A DNA stretch of 64,000 nucleotides from an uncultured Oscillospiraceae bacterium (GCA_910585735.1 CAJUEU010000003.1:22613-86612); one strand, 5' to 3'; shown: positions 2,343 through 18,097, counted from the first letter of the stretch. Notes: generated by a model from the sequence alone, not told the origin. Program-made: numbers and translations.

Positions 2343-2714
2343 ATGAAAAAACACATCCGCTATCGCCCCAGTAAGGCAAGCGCCGGCATGAGCGTTGCCG
2401 TGGGGATCATATTTATCATCATCGGCTTTACTCTGGTGCTTCCCGCCACCTTTGGCTCTGGTTTTCTGCCTGTGGGCCTGTTCGGACTTGCCTGGACGGG
2501 GATCGCGGTGGCCATTACGGTGGTGAACGGTCTTTACCTCTTTGGCAAGCGGGATAACACCAGCTTTTTTGGCAGTTATGTGATCACAGACGAGGAAACG
2601 GAGGAGGAGTCCGAACAGGAGCGGCTGAAAAAGCTCCAGAGCCTGTATGACCAGCGGCTTATCACCGCTGAGGAGTATGAGGAGAAGCGGAAAGAGATCC
2701 TGAAGGAGCTGTAA
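2343..2714 (+). CDS. small membrane protein with C-terminal SHOCT-like domain
   Basis: ATG at 2343 follows GAAAGGAGG. Two hydrophobic helices, and a C-terminus (LKKLQSLYDQRLITAEEYEEKRKEILKEL) that matches the SHOCT pattern. Confidence 0.7.
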   Translation: MKKHIRYRPSKASAGMSVAVGIIFIIIGFTLVLPATFGSGFLPVGLFGLAWTGIAVAITVVNGLYLFGKRDNTSFFGSYVITDEETEEESEQERLKKLQSLYDQRLITAEEYEEKRKEILKEL

Positions 2715-2729
2715 GGAGGGACGGTAGAT

Positions 2730-3041
2730 ATGAGGACATCATTTGGTGTGATACAGTTTGTGATCATTGCCGTGATTCTGATTGTGGCCTTTTCTGCCCA
2801 GATGAAAACGGCAAAGCTCAAGTCCAAAGCCCACACCCAACGGATCCAAAAGAGGAACGAGGCCCGGACCAAGGCCCGGGGTGGTACCCACCTGGGTCAC
2901 GACCACATCAAGTCCACCGAGCTCAGCGACAATCGGAAGCTGGAGCAGCTCAAGGCCTTGAAAGAGGCCGGACTCCTTACTCAGGAGGAGTTCAACACGG
3001 CGTGGGAAAAGGTGATGAAGAAATCCGCCGCGGGGCTGTAG
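2730..3041 (+). CDS. small membrane protein with C-terminal SHOCT-like domain
   Basis: RBS AAGGAGGG lies upstream. N-terminal TM helix, basic linker, and a C-terminus (LEQLKALKEAGLLTQEEFNTAWEKVM) that is SHOCT-like. Confidence 0.7.
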   Translation: MRTSFGVIQFVIIAVILIVAFSAQMKTAKLKSKAHTQRIQKRNEARTKARGGTHLGHDHIKSTELSDNRKLEQLKALKEAGLLTQEEFNTAWEKVMKKSAAGL

Positions 3042-3110
3042 GGGAGGAAGCGCCATGAACACCATGAGACCAGGCAGCTTCGGCGTGACCGAAGGAAATA
3101 GGAGAACCCA

Positions 3111-3560
3111 ATGAAAACAGTTACCATCTACACCGACGGGGCCTGCTCAGGGAATCCAGGGCCGGGAGGCTGGGGAGCCATCCTCCAATACGGTAAGTTT
3201 CAAAAGGAGCTCTCGGGTGGGGAGGAACAGACCACCAACAACCGTATGGAGCTCACCGGGGTGATTTCCGCGCTGAAAGCGCTGAAGGAGCCCTGTGTGG
3301 TGGAGCTGTGGTCGGATTCCAAATATGTGATCGACGCCCTGGAGAAGGGCTGGGCCAGGAGCTGGAAGGCCAAGGGGTGGGTCAAGTCGGACAAGAAGCC
3401 TGCCCTCAACCCCGATTTGTGGGAGGAGTTGCTGAAGCTGTGCGATTACCACACGGTCATCCTCCACTGGGTCAAGGGCCATGCGGATAACAAGTTCAAC
3501 AACCGCTGCGACGAGCTGGCGGTGATGGAGAGTAGGAAGTTTAAAGAGACCATGGAGTAA
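3111..3560 (+). CDS. rnhA: ribonuclease HI
   Basis: [25 protein letters not shown]...TTNNRMEL...[18 protein letters not shown], a typical RNase H type 1. RBS AGGAGA upstream. Confidence 0.93.
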
Positions 3561-3606
3561 ACACTGAGAAAGAAAAGAAAGGTCGGTTATGATAGCCCCT
3601 CAACGA

Positions 3607-3644
3607 GAAAAATCCCGCCTGTCTTTATGACAGGCGGGATTTTA
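3607..3644. terminator. bidirectional rho-independent terminator between rnhA and the helicase gene
   Basis: Perfect 12-bp stem ATCCCGCCTGTC/GACAGGCGGGAT, flanked by an A-run and a T-run. Confidence 0.8.
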
Positions 3645-3738
3645 CATGTTTCAGGGCTTTTCCAGGAAGAAGCACGCCTCATTCCCCTTGCGGAAAGAGC
3701 GGAGGATCAGACGTTCTGTCCCCAATGCTTTCATGGGT

Positions 3739-5796
3739 TCAGTCCTCGTTGGGATTAAAATAGTAGGGCTTCATGAGGCTGCGCTGCTCAGTGGAGTCCT
3801 TCTGGGCCCCCGAGTGGGGAGCCTCCACCGGGCCCCGACGGGGCCGGTCGGGGCGGCGCTTGTCCTGCCGGGACTGTTTGGGAGCGGGAGATCCCTGCTT
3901 GGGAAGAGGCTTGGAGGAGGAAGCGGTCCGATCCTTCCGGGGAAGGGAATTCCGCTCCTGGCCGCCCTTTTGAGAGGCCTTGTCCCGCCGAGGCTTCTCC
4001 TGCCGGGGTGCAGCGGGAGGGTGGACCCGGGGAGAGAGCTGTGTCTGGCTTGCATTGACCGCCGCATGGCCGGGTCGCTTTCCTTCCGACTCGGACTGGT
4101 CTCCGGGCCGCAGACGACCCTTCGCTCGTCCTCGCTCCAGTCCAAGCTCCCCTATGCGGCTATGCTCGCCTTTCGGGGCCAGGAACCGGGCGGTGGCATC
4201 CATGATCTCCTCCCCGGCCAGGGGGTCCTGGCCGTACTGCCGGGCCTGAATGGCACGCTCTTCGGCCAGCCAGGCCTCGAAAGCGGAGTCCCGGGAAGCG
4301 GACTGAGACTTGGATTTGGGCTGGCGGGATGTCTCGCCCCACTTCACAGAGGTTTTTGGGGCGGGGCCTTGGGACTTGGGGGACATAGCTGAGAGAGCCT
4401 GGTCCAGGGTTTTGCTGGCCCGGTAACCCGCCAGCTTCTTGATGGAGGCGGAAGGTTGGGGGTTCTTTCGATGGGACCCCTCATCCGATGCCGGTGAGAC
4501 CGGCGCCACCTTCCCCCCATGGGGAGGAAGGCTTTGGGGGGAGGTCCGTTTTACTTCCTCCCGGGCCTTTTTCCTCTCTCTTGCTGCCTGTCTGGCCTCC
4601 TGGTCATCAGCGTTAACGATCTTGCCGTGCTTATCCCGTTTAGGAGCTTCAAAGACCTCCATGGGGTAGGGGTGGCCCTCCACCACGGGGATGGGCTTTT
4701 TCAGCAGCTTCTCAATGGGGGCCAAGAGCTCCTTTTCCCCAAACTCACAGAAGGAAACGGCGGTACCCCCACGTCCCGCCCGGCCGGTCCGGCCAATGCG
4801 GTGGACGTAGGTCTCAGGCACGTCGGGCAGATTGTAGTTGAAGACGTGGCTCAACTCCTCAATGTCCAGACCCCGGGCGGCAATATCGGTAGCCACCAGA
4901 ACTTTTACCCGTCCCGATTTGAAATCGGCAAGGGCCTGCTGACGGGCGGTCTGGCTCTTGTTGCCGTGGATGGCGGCGGCGTGGATGCCGGCTTTCTCCA
5001 GGTCGGCGGCCACCTTGTTGGCTCCGTGCTTGGTGCGGGTGAATACCAGGGCGTTTTTCACGTCAGGATGCTTTACCAGCATGGAAAGGAGCTTGCCCTT
5101 GTTGGTTCGGTCCACGTAGAAGAGCCGTTGGTCGATGACCTCTACCGGGGAGGACACCGGGTTTACCGCCACCTTTACCGGGTCCACCAGCAGAGCGTCC
5201 ACCAGATGCTGGACCTCAGGGGGCATGGTGGCCGAGAAAAAGAGGGTCTGCTTCCGCTGGGGGATCCAGGTGAGGATCTTTTTGACGTCGTGGATAAAGC
5301 CCATGTCCAGCATGCGGTCAGCTTCATCCAACACAAAGATCTCCAGCTTTTCCACATGGATATATCCCTGGTTGTGGAGATCCTCCAGCCGGCCCGGAGT
5401 GGCGACCAAAATATCCACGCCGGCTTTTAATTTATCCACTTGAGGCTGCTGTCCCACGCCGCCAAAGATGACGGCGGAGCGCAGGGGCAGATTTTTTCCA
5501 TAGGCCTCAAAACTCTCCTGGATCTGGAGGGCCAGTTCCCGGGTGGGGGTGAGGATAAGGGCCCGGATGGGCCGCACTCCCCGCAAGGGCTCAGCCTTGC
5601 GGGCACTGAGCTGTTGAAGAATGGGAGTGGCGAAGGCGCAGGTCTTGCCTGTGCCGGTCTGGGCGCAGCCCAGCACGTCCCGGCCTGTGAGGGCGGGGGG
5701 GATGGCCTTCTCCTGAATGGGAGAGGGCTTTTCATAGTTCAGGTCCTTGAGGGCGGAGAGAATGGAAGGGCAAAGTCCCAGGTCTTGAAAGGTCAT
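3739..5796 (-). CDS. DEAD-box ATP-dependent RNA helicase with a long basic low-complexity C-terminal tail
   Basis: Motifs [18 protein letters not shown] ([13 protein letters not shown]), SAT and [10 protein letters not shown]. Start chosen at MTFQDLGL (ATG 5796, AAGGAA RBS) rather than the ORF-track start at 5835. Confidence 0.93.
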
Positions 5797-5969
5797 AGCT
5801 GTCGTTCCTTTTTTCAAATGTCCCGGCCACGGCAAATTACGGGCCTGCCTTCTTTGGCAGGTCCGGGTGGGGGAAAGCGGAACTTATAGCGGCGCGGAGC
5901 GCCGGGCCTCTCCTTCCGCTGGAGAGGGCCATACACGGCAAAGGCCGTGAAACTATCTATGGTAACGGT

Positions 5970-5998
5970 ATTATACCAGTTTTTGCCGCGGATTACAA
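5970..5998 (-). promoter_or_regulatory. putative sigma-A promoter for the helicase gene
   Basis: On the minus strand: TTGTAA, 17 nt, TATAAT. This implies a 5' UTR of about 170 nt. Confidence 0.45.
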
Positions 5999-6065
5999 GC
6001 CCCAGGCGGGAAAGGGCACAAACAGACAAAACCTTTTCTTTTTTTGCCTTGGAGAGACGTATTTT

Positions 6066-6104
6066 GGAAAAGGAACGGAGGCTGTCTAAAAGACAGCCTC
6101 CGTT
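6066..6104 (-). terminator. terminator downstream of aroK
   Basis: 14-bp stem AACGGAGGCTGTCT/AGACAGCCTCCGTT, followed on the minus strand by CCUUUUCC. Confidence 0.6.
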
Positions 6105-6110
6105 CTTGGG

Positions 6111-6623
6111 TTATCGATGTTTGCCCAGCTCCTTCAATGCGGAAAGGACCAGGCGCAAAGTATCCTCAGCCCGGGGCTGGTCTCCGGCGATGGTAGCATC
6201 GGCGTATTTCTCATAGAAGGGGGAGCGGTAGGCGCAGAGGTCCCCGAGGGTCTGGCCGGGCTCCAAAGTGACCCCCCGGGTGGCCAGGTTGCCCAGCCGT
6301 TTGGTAAGGGCCTCCACCGAGGGCTTCAGGTAGACCACCGGGCCCAGGGCCTTGAGGTGAAGGGCCCCCTTCTCCCGAAGGACCGCCGAGCCCCCGGGGG
6401 CCAGGATGGTGTTCTCGCAGGAAATACCTGAAATGACCTCCGCCTCGGCGTCCAGAAAGGCCTCGGTGCCCAGGTCGTCCAGAACCTTTTGGAGGTTGGG
6501 CGCTTTATACCTGCTGACAATGAGAGGGTCCACATCCAGAAAGGCATACCCAAGCTGTTTAGACAGGAGCCTGCCCACCGTGGATTTGCCCGAGCCGGGC
6601 ATACCGATGAGGGTGATATTCAT
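6111..6623 (-). CDS. aroK: shikimate kinase
   Basis: MNITLIGMPGSGKSTVGRLLSKQLGYAFLDVD: Walker A plus shikimate kinase N-terminal signature. Size is about 170 aa. Confidence 0.9.
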   Translation of the reverse strand: MNITLIGMPGSGKSTVGRLLSKQLGYAFLDVDPLIVSRYKAPNLQKVLDDLGTEAFLDAEAEVISGISCENTILAPGGSAVLREKGALHLKALGPVVYLKPSVEALTKRLGNLATRGVTLEPGQTLGDLCAYRSPFYEKYADATIAGDQPRAEDTLRLVLSALKELGKHR

Positions 6624-14434: not shown

Positions 14435-14603
14435 CGTAAAGCAAAGGGAACTAATTTCTCATATATGAGTTGGCGGCAGGACTCTTTTTTTGCCATAATA
14501 GGTCGAGACAGGGAACCTTCTGGCGGAAGAAGGCGAATTTTTTGCTTTTGCCGGGGGGACAAGCAATTCTCCGGCCTTGGCCGGAAGGGGAGGAGGAGCG
14601 TGG

Positions 14604-14933
14604 ATGCGGGAGGTACAGGAGCTTTTGCGCCGGCTGGGGCTCACTGAACGGTACGTGGGCTTTTTTTACACGGCATGCGCGGTGGAGCTGTGTATGGACC
14701 AGCCTGAGCGGCTGATGTTTGTGACCAAATGGATCTACCCGGATGTGGCCAAACGGTACCAGACAAACTGGACGGCGGTGGAGCGAAGCATCCGCACGGT
14801 GCGGGGTATGCTTTGGAAAAACAACAGGCAGGGGCTGGAATTTTTGGTGGGACGGCCTCTGACGGAGAAGCCGGGCGCCGCGCAGTTTCTGGCTATGCTG
14901 GCCGAAGGAACAGCCCGGCGCGCCTCAGAATAA
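14604..14933 (+). CDS. stand-alone Spo0A C-terminal (Spo0A_C) DNA-binding-domain protein
   Basis: LGLTERYVGFFYTACAVEL...VTKWIYPDVAKRYQTNWTAVERSIRTVRGMLW...KPGAAQFLAMLAE parallels the Spo0A effector domain (IGVPAHIKGY...[28 protein letters not shown]...KPTNSEFIAMVAD, from memory). No receiver domain. ATG 14604 follows GGAGGAGGAG. Confidence 0.75.
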   Translation: MREVQELLRRLGLTERYVGFFYTACAVELCMDQPERLMFVTKWIYPDVAKRYQTNWTAVERSIRTVRGMLWKNNRQGLEFLVGRPLTEKPGAAQFLAMLAEGTARRASE

Positions 14934-14990
14934 AAGAGCCGGACATTACGCCTCCTCTCTGGGCGGCGCAATGTCCGGCTCTTTTATTTT
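14932..14990 (+). terminator. terminator after the Spo0A_C gene
   Basis: 16-bp stem AAAAGAGCCGGACATT/AATGTCCGGCTCTTTT, followed by ATTTT. Confidence 0.7.
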
Positions 14991-15090
14991 CCTTTGAGGA
15001 TGGGCCGCCAGTCTTTTGCCAGTCCTCTGTTCGGCGCCGCAGGGAAGGAGTCCTGTGGTGGTTGGAGGAACAGTAATGGACATATTTTAA

Positions 15091-15150
15091 TTAAAATTTT
15101 AATATATAATTATATCTATAATATAATTATATATCAAATTAAAATTTTAA
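15091..15150. repeat. AT-rich imperfect inverted repeat (candidate operator) abutting the islet promoter
   Basis: Left arm TTAAAATTTTAATATATAATTATAT (15091-15115). Right arm ATATAATTATATATCAAATTAAAATTTTAA (15121-15150). Its reverse complement matches the left arm apart from a 3-nt insertion. Confidence 0.6.
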
Positions 15151-15178
15151 TGACATTTGAAAAATGATGTGCTATAAT
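15150..15178 (+). promoter_or_regulatory. putative sigma-A promoter of the islet operon
   Basis: ATGACA, 17 nt, TATAAT with a TGTGC extended -10 context. The -35 touches the right arm of the inverted repeat. Confidence 0.6.
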
Positions 15179-15210: not shown

Positions 15211-15489
15211 ATGCGGCGAAGTGATCCAATGGATCACCTGGTCTCTATTAGTGCGTTGAATCAGGGACAAGCATCTAAAGTGCTGAACAGAGTTACCGAT
15301 GAGCATGAAATAATTATATTAAAAAACAATCAAGCGAAAGCCGTTATTATCTCTCCCGATCAATTTAGAAGCTACGCCGAACTGGCGGAAATATGCAGTG
15401 TCATTGTGGAGGAGAAGCTAATTTCTGAAGATCAAGAGCAAAAAATTCGTGCCCTCTTGAAGAAGACGAAGCTTTACACGGAAGAGTAA
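15211..15489 (+). CDS. Phd/YefM-family antitoxin-like protein
   Basis: ISALNQGQASKVLNRVTDEHEIIILKNNQAKAVIISPDQFRSY fits the Phd/YefM N-terminal fold pattern. Acidic/basic C-terminal tail. RBS GGGGGAGG lies 9 nt upstream. Confidence 0.7.
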   Translation: MRRSDPMDHLVSISALNQGQASKVLNRVTDEHEIIILKNNQAKAVIISPDQFRSYAELAEICSVIVEEKLISEDQEQKIRALLKKTKLYTEE

Positions 15490-15547
15490 AGGGATGTTTA
15501 TGGGACATGGGTTTGCTTTATACTTGGTATGAGAGGAGGCCAAAACT

Positions 15548-16480
15548 GTGGCAGAGTTTTTTGATTTTAGCCAGTGGCAAAAGCCGGAAGAACTATCTGC
15601 GGGAAGTGGAGCCAGTGAAAAGATATGGCTTCGTTCGCCAGATGGGGAAAGAACAGGCCTCTTTAAATTTCCCAAAACCCGAAATTATCCGGGGAAGCCG
15701 GAGACAACGTCCACAGAGCATGTATCAGAGTGGCTGGCCTCACAATTGGGAAAGATTTTGGGTGTTCCTTGCGCCGAGGTCGAACTGGGAAGCTATTATG
15801 GCCGAAAGGGCAGTTTAAGTGTCCTAATTACTGACAATAAGAAGGAACATTTGGAGCTGAATGAAGGCGTTGCGTTTATCAAGGAATTGTATCCACAATA
15901 CGACGCAAAAGAAATGGTCGACAAGGCCTCCAAAACCTATTACTGTTTAGACCAAATCCTGGAGGCAACAAAGGAATATCTTCCCATACAATTTTGGATC
16001 GAAGTCCTCCTGTTCGACTTTTTGATTGGCAACACAGACCGTCATCAAAGCAACTGGGCGCTGTTAAAGGACGAAGCCGGACAGTATCGTCAATGCCCGC
16101 TTTATGATAATGGGTCATCGCTGTGCAGCTACATTGAAGAGGATCAACTGGAGCGGCTGTTTTCTAAAGATAGCGGCCCTATGAGGCGCTTAACGGATAC
16201 TGGGTCGCGGTCCAAAATACGGATAGATGGGGCGGTCAAAAAAGCTCCCACGCACAAAGAAGTTATCCGTCATATTCTGGATCAGTATCCACGCAGCGCG
16301 GTGCCTACAGCCCGTAATTTTTTAGAGCGGCTTACCCAAGAGAAAATAGAAAGTCTTTTGAACGAATTGCCGAATGATATTTTTTCAGGGGGCCGCAAAA
16401 CGCTCGCTTTATATTATTTAGGTGAGAAGAAACGCATTTTATCTCAGCTGCTAAAGGAAGGAATAACCAATTATGGCTAA
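15548..16480 (+). CDS. HipA-family Ser/Thr kinase, core kinase domain only (HipT-like truncation)
   Basis: Gly-rich loop SAGSGASEKIW, catalytic FLIGNTDRHQSNWALL, and Mg-binding CPLYDNGSSL. 310 aa against 440 aa for E. coli HipA (from memory). GTG start sits 8 nt after GGAGG. Confidence 0.8.
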   Translation: MAEFFDFSQWQKPEELSAGSGASEKIWLRSPDGERTGLFKFPKTRNYPGKPETTSTEHVSEWLASQLGKILGVPCAEVELGSYYGRKGSLSVLITDNKKEHLELNEGVAFIKELYPQYDAKEMVDKASKTYYCLDQILEATKEYLPIQFWIEVLLFDFLIGNTDRHQSNWALLKDEAGQYRQCPLYDNGSSLCSYIEEDQLERLFSKDSGPMRRLTDTGSRSKIRIDGAVKKAPTHKEVIRHILDQYPRSAVPTARNFLERLTQEKIESLLNELPNDIFSGGRKTLALYYLGEKKRILSQLLKEGITNYG

Positions 16481-17174
16481 GAAAAATGGATTGGATTATA
16501 TTTATGTTGTGTGGCAGGATCCTAAAAGCCGCAGCAAATTTGTAATTGGTACTCTTACCCGCAATGGGCATTATGAATTTACCTATGGGGAGGAGTTGGA
16601 ACAGGCCAAGAAGTGCGGCTTTATGCCGATGGTGGCATTTCCCTCATTTGAAGCAAGGTATGTAGAGGATACAGTATTCCCAACATTTTCTTGCCGGCTT
16701 CCCGATGTAAAAAGAAAAGACATTCAGCGCATTTTGGCCGATTGCGGATTAACGGAATATGATGAATTTGAGCTTTTGAAAAAGAGTGGAGCAAAACTTC
16801 CTACTGACACATTAGAGTTTATTGACCCGATTTTTGACGACCAGGAGGTTGTGGACCGCACATTCCATGTTGCGGGGATGCGATATTACATGGATTGCGG
16901 GGGAGAAAATTGCGGTGCTGTTTCGCAGTTGCCTTCTGGAACTACTTTGATCCTTCGACGTGAACCAGATAACCAGCACGACCCTCATGCGGTTCAAGTC
17001 ATGACCAGGGAGGGGGTAATGCTTGGATACTTACCCAGATATTATAGTGAGGCGGTGTCTAAGCGGCTGGAAAAAGGAATGAGCTATACCTGCCAGGTCG
17101 CAACTCATAGCTGTGAAAAAATGTGTGGCGAATGTTTAAAAGTCAAATTGCGGATGCCGGCAATTCTTGTGTAG
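16473..17174 (+). CDS. HipS-like (HipA N-terminal subdomain-like) domain fused to a HIRAN domain
   Basis: N-terminal region: VIGTLTRNGHYEFTYGEE...FPTFSCRLPDVKRKDIQRILADCGLTEYDEFELLKKSGAKLPTDTLEF resembles the HipA N-terminal/HipS pattern. C-terminal region: FHVAGMRYY...LILRREPDNQHDPHAVQV...MLGYLPRYYSEAVSKRL is a HIRAN signature. The start overlaps the kinase stop (ATGGCTAA). Confidence 0.75.
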   Translation: MAKKNGLDYIYVVWQDPKSRSKFVIGTLTRNGHYEFTYGEELEQAKKCGFMPMVAFPSFEARYVEDTVFPTFSCRLPDVKRKDIQRILADCGLTEYDEFELLKKSGAKLPTDTLEFIDPIFDDQEVVDRTFHVAGMRYYMDCGGENCGAVSQLPSGTTLILRREPDNQHDPHAVQVMTREGVMLGYLPRYYSEAVSKRLEKGMSYTCQVATHSCEKMCGECLKVKLRMPAILV

Positions 17175-17186
17175 TGGCAGTTGTGT

Positions 17187-17220
17187 AAAGGAGGCCGTCC
17201 CGCGGGACGGCCTCCTTTGT
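17187..17220. terminator. bidirectional terminator closing the islet and the deacetylase gene
   Basis: 15-bp stem AAAGGAGGCCGTCCC/GGGACGGCCTCCTTT. Confidence 0.8.
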
Positions 17221-17223
17221 GCC

Positions 17224-17988
17224 TTACGACTTGGGGCACTGCTTGCCGGCATGGTCGATGGTGTAATCCGTGTTGTACTCTCCGGGGAGAATGAGCTCCG
17301 AGATGGGAACAAAGGTGTAGCCCTCCTGGAGCAGAGTCTCCAGAATGGCGGGCAGGGCCTCGGGGGTGTGCTTGGCGGCGTTGTGAAACAGCACGATGGA
17401 GCCCGCCTGCACCCTGGAGGTCACCCGTTTGGTGATCTCGGCGGCGCTGAGGTCCTTCCAGTCCAGGGAGTCCACATCCCATTGAATGGGCTCCATGCCG
17501 ATGGCCCGGATGGCGGTGATCACGTTGTCGTCATACTCCCCGTAGGGGGGGCGAATGAGGGTGGGACGCACCCCGGTGACCGCCTCGATCTTGTCGTTGC
17601 AGGCGTTCAGATCTGCGCCGATCTCCTCCCGGGAAAGCTGGGAGAGATGGTCGTGGTGGTTGGAATGGTTCATCACCTCATGCCCCGCGTCCGAGAGGGC
17701 CTTCACCGACTCAGGGTATTTGTCCACCCACTCCCCCACCACAAAGAAGGTGGCCTTTACATTGTACTTGCTCAAAATGTCGATAAGCTGCTGGGTGTCC
17801 TCATTGCCCCAGGCTGCGTCAAAGGAAATGGACACCATTTTTTGGTCCCGCTGGACGCAGTAGATGGGCAATTCTCTGGTGGTGGCCGAGGCCCCTACCA
17901 CCAGAGGAGAGTTCACCGCCCACAGCATACCTCCCGCCGCCAGCAGACAAGCCAGTACGGTCAAAGTCTTTTTCTTCAGCAAAAACAT
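17224..17988 (-). CDS. polysaccharide deacetylase family protein (PdaA/PdaB-like)
   Basis: Signal/TM MFLLKKKTLTVLACLLAAGG, then VSISFDAAWGNEDT...ATFFVVGEWV...GHEVMNHSNHH (NodB motifs). Start moved to ATG 17988. Confidence 0.88.
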   Translation of the reverse strand: MFLLKKKTLTVLACLLAAGGMLWAVNSPLVVGASATTRELPIYCVQRDQKMVSISFDAAWGNEDTQQLIDILSKYNVKATFFVVGEWVDKYPESVKALSDAGHEVMNHSNHHDHLSQLSREEIGADLNACNDKIEAVTGVRPTLIRPPYGEYDDNVITAIRAIGMEPIQWDVDSLDWKDLSAAEITKRVTSRVQAGSIVLFHNAAKHTPEALPAILETLLQEGYTFVPISELILPGEYNTDYTIDHAGKQCPKS

Positions 17989-18097
17989 CTTGATATTCAA
18001 AGGGATCCCCTCCTCGCGATTCTGATGTACTATATGCTTCGTCCACAGGGTTCCATGCGGAAAAATGTACTGAAACCGCATTAGAGATAAGCGTAAA

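Follow-up and report, generated by a model that had tools for sequence, protein, structure and literature searches.

A hipIN-type kinase operon extended by an upstream Phd/YefM gene on a low-GC islet of an uncultured Oscillospiraceae bacterium

Split HipA-family systems and the locus under study

The hipIN system, consisting of the kinase HipI and its partner HipN, was predicted in 2021 by Gerdes et al., who placed it in clade XI and described it as bicistronic (PMC8262856). Sensing of DNA ends by the HIRAN domain, leading to abortive infection, was already proposed in that study; the same idea in a preliminary description of the locus analyzed here matches it nearly word for word and is thus not new. 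Phd/YefM proteins are mentioned nowhere in that publication (PMC8262856). Also reported by Gerdes et al. in 2021 is HipL, a single-chain kinase-HipS-HIRAN protein whose three domains follow one another from N to C terminus as in the hipI-hipN gene pair of the locus described below and which is likewise carried on mobile elements (e.g., the 519-aa form encoded by Escherichia phage 899 / Yersinia phage GMG73). Unlike that locus, HipL is one fused polypeptide without Phd, and its copy in a P2-like phage is paired with an Rv2179c-like DEDD exonuclease. Furthermore, actinobacterial diDNase-HipA-HIRAN clusters combine hipIN with a conserved third gene and are found in the vicinity of defence systems, on genomic islands or mobile elements; their third gene, however, encodes a DEDD deoxydinucleotidase, and they belong to another phylum and kinase subclade (PMC11706625). 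The only split system tested is HipBST (Escherichia coli O127:H6, Legionella pneumophila; PDB 7AB3-5, 8EZR, 7VKB), in which the promoter is repressed by HipB on its own, with HipS acting as antitoxin (PMC10627512). No experimental work on HipI, HipN or the equivalent PADLOC candidate PDC-M03, and no Phd-Hip pairing, was found in the literature searched.

In the 64,000-nt stretch of DNA from an uncultured Oscillospiraceae bacterium that was analyzed here (the window), three adjacent genes, whose products are all unnamed in the current annotation, represent a relative of these systems. Two neighbouring genes matched PDC-M03A (E 2.7e-94) and PDC-M03B (E 3.1e-91) over their full length; PADLOC provides no model for the third one. 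Based on these full-length matches, taken as proxies, and on the gene context, the window kinase and its HipN partner are assigned to the hipIN type. Features shared with published hipIN are the short core kinase without N-subdomain 1 (279–321 aa in the paper, 310 aa here), a serine near the Gly-rich loop, the location of this loop near the N terminus, a downstream gene for a HipS-like and HIRAN protein, and occurrence in Firmicutes. Whereas hipIN is bicistronic in the paper, a Phd/YefM gene is located upstream of the kinase gene and coupled to it here and at 43 further loci; the kinases of a sister branch show the bicistronic organization. In the preliminary description, both a Phd-type third component and the gene order had been regarded as unfamiliar. 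The first of these points stands, since such a component is absent from the literature searched, but the order kinase followed by HipS-HIRAN is that of published hipIN. What seems to be new is the Phd/YefM gene ahead of hipIN.

Compared with HipBST, the locus likewise comprises a regulator, a core kinase without N-subdomain 1 and a protein with HipS fold, and the N-terminal half of HipN superposes on HipS and the kinase on HipT. It differs in that the regulator encoded first is of the Phd/YefM fold instead of the HipB HTH type, in the order regulator-kinase-HipS::HIRAN as opposed to hipB-hipS-hipT with a free-standing HipS of ~100 aa, in the fusion of the HipS module to HIRAN, and in the kinase being only distantly related to the HipT clade (TM ~0.5). 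By analogy, a TA-like hipIN-type operon that is extended by a Phd/YefM gene and follows a HipBST-like mechanism is the reading favoured here, with a probability of about 0.6. It would represent a further case of antitoxin or regulator swapping, with Phd/YefM in place of HipB. Moreover, the third gene associated with hipIN varies by lineage: it encodes Phd in Clostridia, and a DEDD exonuclease in Actinobacteria and in P2-like phages. Few predicted TA/defence modules, hipIN and hipL among them, wire a nucleic-acid-end-binding domain directly to the inhibitor of a toxin.

The islet and its three gene products

The locus is a three-gene operon on a horizontally acquired 2.1-kb islet. All three open reading frames of the preliminary description were present on the plus strand, i.e., a phd-like gene (15211-15489; 92 aa, ATG start), a hipI-type kinase gene (15548-16480; 310 aa, GTG start) and a hipN-type gene (16473-17174; 233 aa, ATG start). 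Direct reading of the sequence confirmed the 8-nt overlap of the third gene with the end of the kinase gene (16473-16480) and revealed a gap of 58 nt, without overlap, between phd and the kinase gene. Shine-Dalgarno sites precede phd (GGGGGAGG), the GTG codon of the kinase gene (AGGAGG) and hipN (AGGAAGG). Artefactual reading frames or a wrongly chosen GTG start were ruled out by homologues of 310 aa, the Shine-Dalgarno site and the N-terminal alignment.

The islet with its three co-oriented genes has a GC content of 0.45 versus ~0.58, with GC falling after ~15075, and the islets are of low GC content in three high-GC hosts. Its left limit is a terminator-like hairpin with T-run on the plus strand (14959-14990; stem 14959-14978, tail CTCTTTTATT), which closes the upstream host gene encoding a Spo0A_C-only protein. 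In the intergenic region that separates hipN from a convergent gene for a polysaccharide deacetylase, a perfect GC-rich hairpin, AAAGGAGGCCGTCC-CGCG-GGACGGCCTCCTTT (17187-17218), was read from the sequence and represents a candidate for a bidirectional terminator and the right islet limit; the consensus terminator scan did not call it because its T-run is short. Housekeeping genes (TetR, MalQ, Spo0A_C, deacetylase, AraC, MFS, AspRS) surround the locus in all eight strains or contigs recovered, among whose neighbouring genes no defence-island or prophage setting was found, and tRNA or Rfam elements were detected nowhere in the whole 64-kb window.

The kinase was matched by Pfam HipA_C (E 1.3e-12, 48.3 bits at a cut-off of 30.5) and HipA_2 (E 5.7e-7, 29.5 at a cut-off of 27). 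Three HipA kinase motifs quoted previously were all located, namely SAGSGASEK (residues 17-25), GNTDRHQSNW (161-170) and PLYDNGSS (184-191). Across 31 homologues, S20, G21, S23, E24 and K25, K40, D164, R165, H166 and N169 as well as D187, N188 and G189 are invariant, and these comprise the catalytic, ATP-binding and Mg-binding residues together with two serines of the Gly-rich loop. An AlphaFold2 model (pLDDT 86.8, pTM 0.86) was assigned by Foldseek with a probability of 1.00 to CtkA, HipA (2wiu, 3tpv, 4pu3) and HipT (8ezr_B, 7ab3), which, together with the Pfam results, supports the view of a 310-aa kinase without N-subdomain 1. The likeness to HipT claimed beforehand holds for domain composition but not for closeness, since the nearest solved structure is that of CtkA (TM 0.76-0.82), with HipT reaching a TMq of only 0.47-0.52. 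Correspondingly, the CtkA profile matched residues 31-290 with E 1.2e-14, and the HipT profile matched 63 residues of the catalytic segment only (E 1e-3); this segment can be aligned with both HipT(Lp) and HipA. The Helicobacter pylori kinase CtkA (JHP0940; PDB 3AKJ/3AKK/3AKL), closest in both structure and sequence, is a core HipA-like enzyme that also lacks N-subdomain 1; unlike the role considered here, its PDB entries describe it as proinflammatory, and no role as a TA toxin is known for it.

HipN, which directly follows the kinase at 73 of 80 genome loci (most of the remainder being cut contigs), comprises a HipS-like domain (~1-120) and a HIRAN domain (~125-230). Pfam Couple_hipA (residues 24-109, E 1e-5, 26.4 bits at a cut-off of 22.5) and HIRAN (residues 131-203, E 2.6e-16, 59.7 bits at a cut-off of 24.7), together with Foldseek matches of the AlphaFold2 model (pLDDT 88.5) to both HipS and HIRAN structures, bear out the fusion proposed for this gene. 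The N-terminal half matched HipS with TMt values of 0.75 (8ezr_A), 0.71 (7vkb_B) and 0.77 (7ab3_E) at an rmsd of 2.7-3.3. No significant match to HipS was obtained when its sequence profile was compared with PDB sequences (best HI_0666, E 0.47), and the modelled domain resembles HipS by fold and Pfam family only. This comparison gave no position in HipN for Trp65 of E. coli HipS, the bulky neutralizing residue wedged against the Gly-rich loop of the kinase, and Trp65 is itself not conserved across all HipS proteins (PMC10627512). For the HIRAN half, Foldseek retrieved HLTF (4xzg/4s0n/4xzf, TMt ~0.64) and lp_0118 (3k2y, 0.72-0.76), and HIRAN profile matches reached E 2.8e-7 and 3e-5. In the alignment to HLTF, MRYY (136-139) corresponds to LRYY and DNQHD (166-170) to NNPYD, motifs that in HLTF contact the DNA 3' end. 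R137, N167 and D170 are invariant or nearly so in the family; at a position that is Tyr in the family consensus and in HLTF, the window protein carries His.

A kinase without toxin function was also considered, i.e., a signalling enzyme which HIRAN would bring to DNA ends or stalled forks for the phosphorylation of repair or replication proteins, with Phd serving as a transcriptional regulator only. The status of CtkA fits such a role, as do eukaryotic HIRAN domains working in replication-fork remodelling (PMC8262856) and the DEDD exonuclease or diDNase genes adjoining related systems (PMC11706625). This explanation is nevertheless regarded as very improbable: the HipA-family kinases characterized so far are growth-arresting toxins (PMC8262856, PMC10627512), the regulator stems from a TA antitoxin family, and the distribution is patchy and horizontally transferred, involving low-GC islets, phages, ICEs and plasmids.

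Recurrence and variation of the Phd/YefM gene

As the preliminary description had stated, the first gene encodes a Phd/YefM-type protein and not a HipB-type HTH regulator: Pfam PhdYeFM_antitox (PF02604) matched with E 7.5e-10 (38.9 bits at a cut-off of 29.8) and NCBIfam phd_fam TIGR01552 with a score of 24 (cut-off 20.8), and neither Pfam nor NCBIfam returned an HTH match. PF02604 was also found in 18 of 19 orthologues, and profile matches included Rv2865 and P1 Phd. Directly downstream, a cognate toxin of the Doc, YoeB, RelE or ParE type is absent, and the HipA-family kinase occupies its place.

Within one branch of the kinase tree, a Phd gene is located 5' of the kinase at 19 of 31 leaves, compared with none of the 49 leaves in the sister branch. 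In the reverse direction, a search with the Phd profile alone yielded 28 loci, 22 of which possess HipI directly downstream (plus HipN where the contig allows) and two of which are cut, corresponding to 22 of 26 informative loci. In total, the phd-kinase-hipN arrangement was observed at 44 independent loci (the window and 43 others), a recurrence far beyond chance. At 38 of these, the spacing between the phd stop and the kinase start ranges from -8 to +6 nt, including 19 overlaps of 4 or 8 nt. Moreover, identity matrices correlate between Phd and kinase (r = 0.92) and between HipN and kinase (r = 0.94; Mantel 0/2000). Co-occurrence, coupling and co-diversification thus support the earlier view that the three genes belong to a single module, and the survey of their co-occurrence that had been suggested beforehand returned the same gene order at these 44 loci.

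These data also bear on the idea that Phd is an unrelated orphan antitoxin lying by chance beside a bicistronic hipIN. The 58-nt gap in the window, the published description of hipIN as bicistronic (PMC8262856) and the missing PADLOC model for the third gene would agree with such a coincidence, which is effectively refuted by the co-occurrence data, namely by the shared order, the near-zero spacing and the co-diversification, as well as by the frequency of HipI behind Phd-profile matches. In addition, the consensus scan revealed neither a separate promoter nor a terminator between phd and the kinase gene in the window; the sole plus-strand promoter-like site inside the operon is weak (9/12) and located within hipN.

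Phd is absent from 12 of the 31 members of the Phd-positive branch, from all 49 sister-branch loci and from all copies on viral contigs. A six-frame profile search of all 80 genome loci uncovered no degenerate Phd remnants beyond 18, and the 12 members of the Phd-positive branch without Phd yielded no other conserved gene (HTH, RHH etc.) upstream of the kinase, the ORFs at that position being unrelated or spurious. Since the gene is missing from these 12 members and from the whole sister branch, Phd is dispensable for the core system, and something else must restrain the kinase at loci possessing HipI and HipN only.

Orthologues also differ in their C-terminal region. Long Phd forms, including that of the window, share an (I/M)xxLxxKLxxY helix, with an identity of only 26-33% between their subgroups, and many other orthologues, of 67-72 aa, are almost devoid of the tail, so that contact between Phd and the kinase cannot be general. 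Outside hipIN, the nearest Phd relatives are classical antitoxins followed by ParE-like toxins (L089, L092, L101). With these and with Phd-Doc and YefM-YoeB the proteins described here share the N-terminal PF02604 domain, the position as a small first gene, palindromes in the promoter and, in long forms, a helical C-terminal tail. They differ from them in having a HipA-family kinase and HipN as partners instead of Doc, YoeB, RelE or ParE, and in the loss of the toxin-binding tail from many orthologues.

An exchange of roles was weighed, in which Phd would be the labile antitoxin acting through its C-terminal helix, as Phd does with Doc, and HipN an activator or targeting subunit that contributes the missing N-subdomain 1 in trans and anchors the kinase at DNA ends. 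The nearest relatives and the helix common to divergent long forms speak for this exchange; furthermore, the frequent 4- or 8-nt overlaps suggest a stoichiometric complex, and N-subdomain 1 of full-length HipA is part of the active enzyme and not an inhibitor (PMC10627512). It is nonetheless judged unlikely, given the loci without Phd, the many orthologues without the helix and the antitoxin function of the HipS module in HipBST (PMC10627512).

Promoter palindromes, proposed mode of action and mobile elements

Upstream of phd, a promoter-like site on the plus strand (ATGACA-17 nt-TATAAT with TG extended -10; 15150-15178) showed 11 of 12 matches. It is accompanied by two copies of the palindrome ATTAAAATTTTAAT, which represent candidate operators. 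The distal copy O1 (15090-15103) has a related counterpart at the equivalent position in L001 and L002, and the proximal copy O2 (15138-15151) overlaps the -35 hexamer, its motif TTTTAATGACA being kept in the same two loci. An AT-rich inverted repeat of 33 bp (15102-15134; arms of 14 nt, loop of 5 nt, -109 from the phd ATG) lies between the two. The two copies, 48 bp apart, are the only ones in 64 kb, with none expected from whole-window shuffles, in which the local AT-richness of the promoter was not modelled. Other Phd-positive loci feature equivalent TTGACA-17-TATAAT promoters upstream of phd and keep the two-site layout with a different, TAATGAnAATTnTCATTA-like palindrome that switches along with the Phd subgroup. 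The Phd-containing clade offers a compact 2-kb cassette with its own regulator, a defined promoter and candidate operators that is directly testable, and natural comparisons are provided by Phd-plus versus Phd-less systems and by long-tail versus short-tail Phd forms.

For the favoured TA-like operon, we infer toxicity, kinase target, neutralization and both DNA-binding activities in the following way. A dimer of the Phd-like protein would bind the two palindromes flanking or overlapping the -35 element and repress the operon, a role performed by HipB in HipBST. Free HipI is predicted to be an active Ser/Thr kinase that would stop growth by phosphorylating an indispensable translation factor, with an aminoacyl-tRNA synthetase as the likeliest target. 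HipN may serve as antitoxin, as HipS does in HipBST, and at the same time as a DNA-end sensor, its HIRAN domain binding free 3'-OH DNA ends that arise when phage DNA is replicated or packaged, during conjugative transfer or through damage. Binding of such ends, or loss of labile partners, would free the kinase, with abortive infection and/or stabilization of the carrying element as the expected outcome. In long Phd forms, that of the window included, the conserved helix at the C terminus is a probable contact site for the kinase-HipN complex and could thereby link repression to complex formation.

A strict division of DNA-related tasks is put forward more tentatively and is thought somewhat doubtful. 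Here, Phd, an antitoxin captured by this clade of Hip kinase systems, would be the sequence-specific operator binder, maybe within a ternary Phd-HipI-HipN complex held by the C-terminal helix, and HIRAN purely a sensor of 3'-OH ends of phage or conjugative DNA that releases the kinase. If true, the operon would constitute a kinase immune switch triggered by nucleic-acid ends, and its regulator would be without precedent among known Phd/YefM proteins in controlling a HipA-superfamily kinase.

An addiction module composed of the same components is regarded as less likely than not; post-segregational killing would then stabilize conjugative elements or prophages, and HIRAN would serve regulation or DNA tethering. 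The window cassette stands alone as an islet whose surroundings contain no defence genes, and among its relatives the cassette occurs inside a conjugative element (T4SS/relaxase), beside ParAB/Fic/CHAP genes, on plasmids of Actinobacteria and Cyanobacteria and in the lysogeny region of a prophage. On the other hand, HIRAN is unusual for a plain addiction module, PADLOC lists the system as a defence candidate, and an anti-phage effect has been demonstrated for DS-6/HipAD, another system of the HipA family (PMC13092281). Addiction and anti-phage roles are not mutually exclusive, and the favoured HipBST-like operon may serve either. Concerning phages, hipIN was found on 10 IMG/VR viral contigs and, in the C. 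difficile phage phiCDKH02, between the lysogeny module and the integrase. In a P2-like phage, the fused HipL form is flanked by the genes for the replication endonuclease and the portal protein; this site is known as a hotspot for anti-phage cargo and likewise speaks against addiction.

Gene content and predicted structures of the cassette

On the forward strand, three ORFs of identical orientation were called at positions 15211-17174, each preceded by a Shine-Dalgarno site and encoding proteins of 92, 310 and 233 aa, namely phd (15211-15489), a HipI-type kinase gene (15548-16480) and a HipN-type gene (16473-17174) whose start overlaps the kinase stop codon by 8 nt (16473-16480). In Pfam searches, every domain named in the preliminary description, which had interpreted the cassette as a split-Hip kinase module, was recovered above the curated cut-offs: PhdYeFM_antitox (E 7.5e-10) for the first protein, HipA_C (1.3e-12) plus HipA_2 for the kinase, and Couple_hipA (residues 24-109, 1e-5) and HIRAN (residues 131-203, 2.6e-16) for HipN. 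The first protein is a member of the Phd/YefM family with a non-canonical partner. The kinase motifs quoted in that description are located at residues 17-25, 161-170 and 184-191, and their key residues are invariant in 31 homologues (44-83% identity).

AlphaFold2 models computed from family alignments were confident for the kinase (pLDDT 86.8) and HipN (pLDDT 88.5), and were compared with the PDB by means of Foldseek. The kinase model matched H. pylori CtkA best (TM 0.76-0.82), followed by E. coli/Shewanella HipA and HipT proteins, while the N-terminal half of HipN resembled HipS of three solved HipS-HipT complexes (TMt 0.71-0.77) and the C-terminal half resembled HIRAN in human HLTF and in lp_0118 of L. 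plantarum. The HIRAN domain of HipN retains the RYY and N-x-(Y/H)-D motifs aligned with the 3'-end pocket of HLTF. The kinase shows the features tested for the HipA_C family and those tested for HipI, apart from a bicistronic organization, and HipN those of the HipS fold and of HIRAN. Based on the ORFs, the gene overlap, the Pfam domains, the invariant motifs and the structure matches, the three-gene observation was confirmed in full.

Four cysteines of HipN (C142, C147, C218 and C221) are invariant or nearly so in 32 HipN homologues. C142 and C147 are situated within a short insertion that the HIRAN structure of lp_0118 does not have, whereas a CxxC motif close to the C terminus is made up of C218 and C221; these two segments received the lowest pLDDT values of the model. 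This pattern suggests that HipN-type HIRAN domains may possess a structural zinc site of their own; neither 'zinc' nor 'cysteine' is mentioned in the 2021 hipIN paper (PMC8262856).

In that paper, the pair of a kinase and a downstream HipS-like::HIRAN protein was described as 'hipIN' (Gerdes, Baerentsen and Brodersen, mBio 2021, PMC8262856). [quoted passage not shown] Moreover, full-length matches to the A and B models of PADLOC PDC-M03, labelled 'phage defence candidate', were obtained for the window kinase and HipN (E 2.7e-94 and 3.1e-91, respectively). Neither the order of kinase and HipS-HIRAN nor the mechanistic hypothesis is new, and the hipIN/PDC-M03 core has been described, computationally only. 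The preliminary description had considered both the gene order and the Phd/YefM component unfamiliar; the former corresponds to published hipIN (PMC8262856), while for the latter, including its operator architecture and its conservation within one clade, no earlier report appears to exist. The literature search yielded no experimental work on HipI, HipN or PDC-M03, and the three window proteins are unnamed in public sources.

Association of Phd with one hipIN clade

Eighty genomic loci, each encoding a relative of the kinase, were fetched. In 73 of them, the kinase gene is directly followed by that of HipN, including three with a HipS-only ORF; the other seven are mostly contigs ending too early. 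The three HipS-only loci (L022, L023 and L026, from Lachnospiraceae) encode, behind the kinase, a 118-aa HipS-like ORF (at about 5906-6262 in each) and lack both HIRAN and Phd. They fall within the Phd-positive kinase branch and agree with published speculation in which hipJS derives from hipIN via HIRAN loss.

A Phd homologue was encoded directly upstream of the kinase in 18 of the 80 loci, and a six-frame profile search of the same loci yielded no further or degenerate copies. In a neighbour-joining kinase tree, Phd-positive loci were confined to one of two major branches, where they represent 19 of 31 leaves (window counted) versus 0 of 49 in the other branch. At the 12 Phd-negative loci of the former branch, no conserved substitute ORF was observed. 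Among the aligned upstream proteins, 18 of 19 individually matched PF02604.

Conversely, metagenome contigs were scanned with the Phd profile alone. Of the 28 loci obtained, 22 encode a HipI kinase in the next gene, with HipN after it wherever the contig extends further, and two were cut at the contig end. The remaining four are lower-scoring relatives, i.e., longer classical Phd/YefM proteins, three of which are followed by a ParE-like ORF. Annotated contigs contributed three extra Phd-positive examples, two of them with a pre-computed Pfam PhdYeFM assignment upstream. Altogether, the order phd-hipI-hipN was found at 44 loci. The phd stop lies between -8 and +6 nt from the kinase start in 38 of these, and overlaps of 4 or 8 nt occur 19 times; the exception is the group of the window and its closest relatives L001 and L002, featuring a spacing of 58-59 nt. 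Pairwise identity matrices of the 44 loci correlated with r = 0.92 for Phd versus kinase and 0.94 for HipN versus kinase, and the observed correlation was reached in 0 of 2000 permutations of a Mantel test.

Because of branch confinement, the reverse scan, the spacing and the co-varying identity matrices, phd-hipI-hipN is a unit that is conserved, inherited together and in most cases translationally coupled within a single hipIN clade, and the feature is real and well supported. Its hosts are mostly Oscillospiraceae, Acutalibacteraceae and other Clostridia. An orphan antitoxin gene adjacent by chance is effectively excluded by gene order at 44 loci, spacing and r = 0.92, leaving coincidental adjacency of phd only a negligible probability.

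Long Phd forms, including that of the window, have a C-terminal helix motif, (I/M)xxLxxKLxxY, in common across subgroups only 26-33% identical, whereas the motif is missing from many orthologues of 67-72 aa. Since it is kept in the long forms, Phd likely contacts the kinase complex directly in the window cassette; since many short orthologues lack it, such contact is no general requirement.

Candidate operators and proposed regulation

Upstream of phd, a strong sigma-70-type promoter was identified at 15150-15178 (ATGACA-17 nt-TATAAT with TG extended -10, 11/12 matches). The 64-kb window contains exactly two copies of the palindrome ATTAAAATTTTAAT, a candidate operator (15090-15103 and 15138-15151), the second copy overlapping the -35 element. 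Between the two copies, a perfect, AT-only inverted repeat of 33 bp with 14-nt arms is located at 15102-15134. This repeat is overlapped by a promoter-like site on the reverse strand (TTGATA-17-TATAAT, 15137-15109, 11/12 matches).

The shuffle control for ATTAAAATTTTAAT used whole-window composition and therefore exaggerates the significance in a stretch as AT-rich as this one; stronger evidence came from the comparison of loci. The TTTTAATGACA junction is kept in L001 and L002 along with a distal related site. In other Phd-positive loci the layout is unchanged and the palindrome is different: a TAATGAnAATTnTCATTA-like palindrome lies approx. 40-50 bp upstream of the -35 element and is accompanied by a half-site in the -35/-10 spacer (TTGACAAATTATCATTAC...TATAAT). 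Since L001/L002 and the other loci differ in this respect, the operator-like sequence varies in step with the Phd subgroup, as would be expected if Phd were an operator-binding autorepressor.

HipB by itself is the promoter repressor of HipBST, and HipS acts as antitoxin of HipT by wedging Trp65 beside the Gly-rich loop (PMC10627512). Sequence similarity of HipN to solved HipS proteins was not significant (HI_0666, E 0.47), and no Trp65-type plug was assigned to HipN. The window system is proposed to work alike, yet it is no member of HipBST, because the regulator fold and the gene order differ, HipS is fused, and the kinase is much closer to CtkA than to HipT. Starting from the domains, catalytic residues, operon, clade-specific conservation, promoter palindromes and mobile-element carriage directly observed here, a HipBST-like model as a whole is given a probability of roughly 0.6. 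By analogy, Phd would take the place of HipB as autorepressor and HipI would be a growth-arresting kinase, probably targeting an aminoacyl-tRNA synthetase, with HipN as its antitoxin; a non-toxic HipI acting in DNA-damage signalling instead appears quite improbable. Release of HipI would be triggered when the HIRAN domain of HipN senses free DNA 3' ends. The latter idea, also raised in the preliminary description, was already put forward by Gerdes et al. 2021 (PMC8262856), who suggested that HIRAN detects the DNA ends present in replication intermediates or in phages entering the cell, leading to kinase activation and abortive infection. Swapped roles, with Phd as the true antitoxin and HipN as an activating or targeting subunit, are rather unlikely, many hipIN loci being devoid of Phd. 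Partner swapping is common among TA regulators, so that a specialist would not be very surprised by the Phd component. The cassette nevertheless represents a compact and complete entry point to the idea, predicted only, that a toxin kinase is controlled by a HIRAN domain which senses DNA ends.

Genomic site and carriage by mobile elements

The cassette coincides with a GC trough (0.42-0.455 per kb versus about 0.58-0.61 around; 0.45 in the cassette versus 0.585 and 0.549 in the 3-kb flanks). The left limit of this trough is a terminator-like hairpin behind the upstream host gene (14959-14990), and its right limit is a perfect GC-rich hairpin (17187-17218) common to the cassette and the convergent polysaccharide deacetylase gene. 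In the window and eight other strains/contigs of the species, one of them from a mouse gut metagenome, the cassette occupies one chromosomal site with housekeeping neighbours, and no prophage or defence island was present at this site; tRNA and Rfam elements were absent from the whole window. The cassette stands out by its low GC in three high-GC hosts, whereas it does not in hosts of low GC; this suggests that it was acquired from a Clostridia lineage of lower GC.

The gene directly upstream (14577-14933, forward strand) encodes a 109-118-aa protein limited to the DNA-binding C-terminal domain of Spo0A (Spo0A_C, E 2.5e-25), without receiver domain. Because of its host GC content and its occurrence in all strains, it is outside the cassette. 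A homologue of the deacetylase gene (window 17224-18081) also adjoins the cassette in L001 (4191-4428, upstream) and L002 (3570-4106, downstream, opposite orientation), an arrangement suggestive of a local rearrangement or of an insertion within or next to this gene. L002 (CAZEAT010000073.1, 4.1 kb) is labelled 'uncultured Holosporaceae', an alphaproteobacterial family; its cassette shows 76-83% protein identity to the Oscillospiraceae one and it carries the matching deacetylase gene, and the contig is probably mis-binned.

Among relatives, a three-gene cassette was found within a conjugative element that encodes a T4SS, a coupling protein and a relaxase. In L129/L130 (P0039 context), it is inserted between T4SS genes, separating those of PrgI and a VirB4-like ATPase from those of TrbL and the coupling protein, on the strand opposite to the transfer genes; this element occurs on at least 23 contigs. 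Another three-gene cassette adjoins ParA/ParB, Fic and CHAP-lysozyme genes, and a further one is chromosomal next to smpB. HipIN without Phd was present on 10 IMG/VR viral contigs and in the temperate Clostridioides difficile phage phiCDKH02 (PP767789.1; L127, 2619-4208), where it separates the ImmA/XRE lysogeny module from the integrase gene. The HipN of this phage is 45% identical to that of the window, and its hipIN could be an experimentally tractable relative. HipN homologues were also encoded on actinobacterial and cyanobacterial plasmids. Addiction rather than defence, in which the same mechanism would stabilise the carrying element, is a tentative possibility compatible with the HipBST-like model.

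In the P2-like Escherichia phage 899 (PV533660.1; coordinates of locus L128), a 519-aa HipL-type fusion (HipA_C, Couple_hipA, HIRAN; 2601-4160) adjoins an Rv2179c-like DEDD 3'-5' exonuclease gene (1956-2507) between the replication endonuclease and portal genes, a position that is the known P2 hotspot for anti-phage cargo. This pair mirrors the diDNase-HipA-HIRAN clusters of Actinobacteria, a phylum where HipA and HIRAN genes are neighbours of one third of the diDNase (DEDD) genes (PMC11706625). Given Phd in the window clade versus DEDD exonucleases in Actinobacteria and the P2-like phage, hipIN/hipL take up different third genes in different lineages. Yersinia phage GMG73 gave the same match as phage 899.
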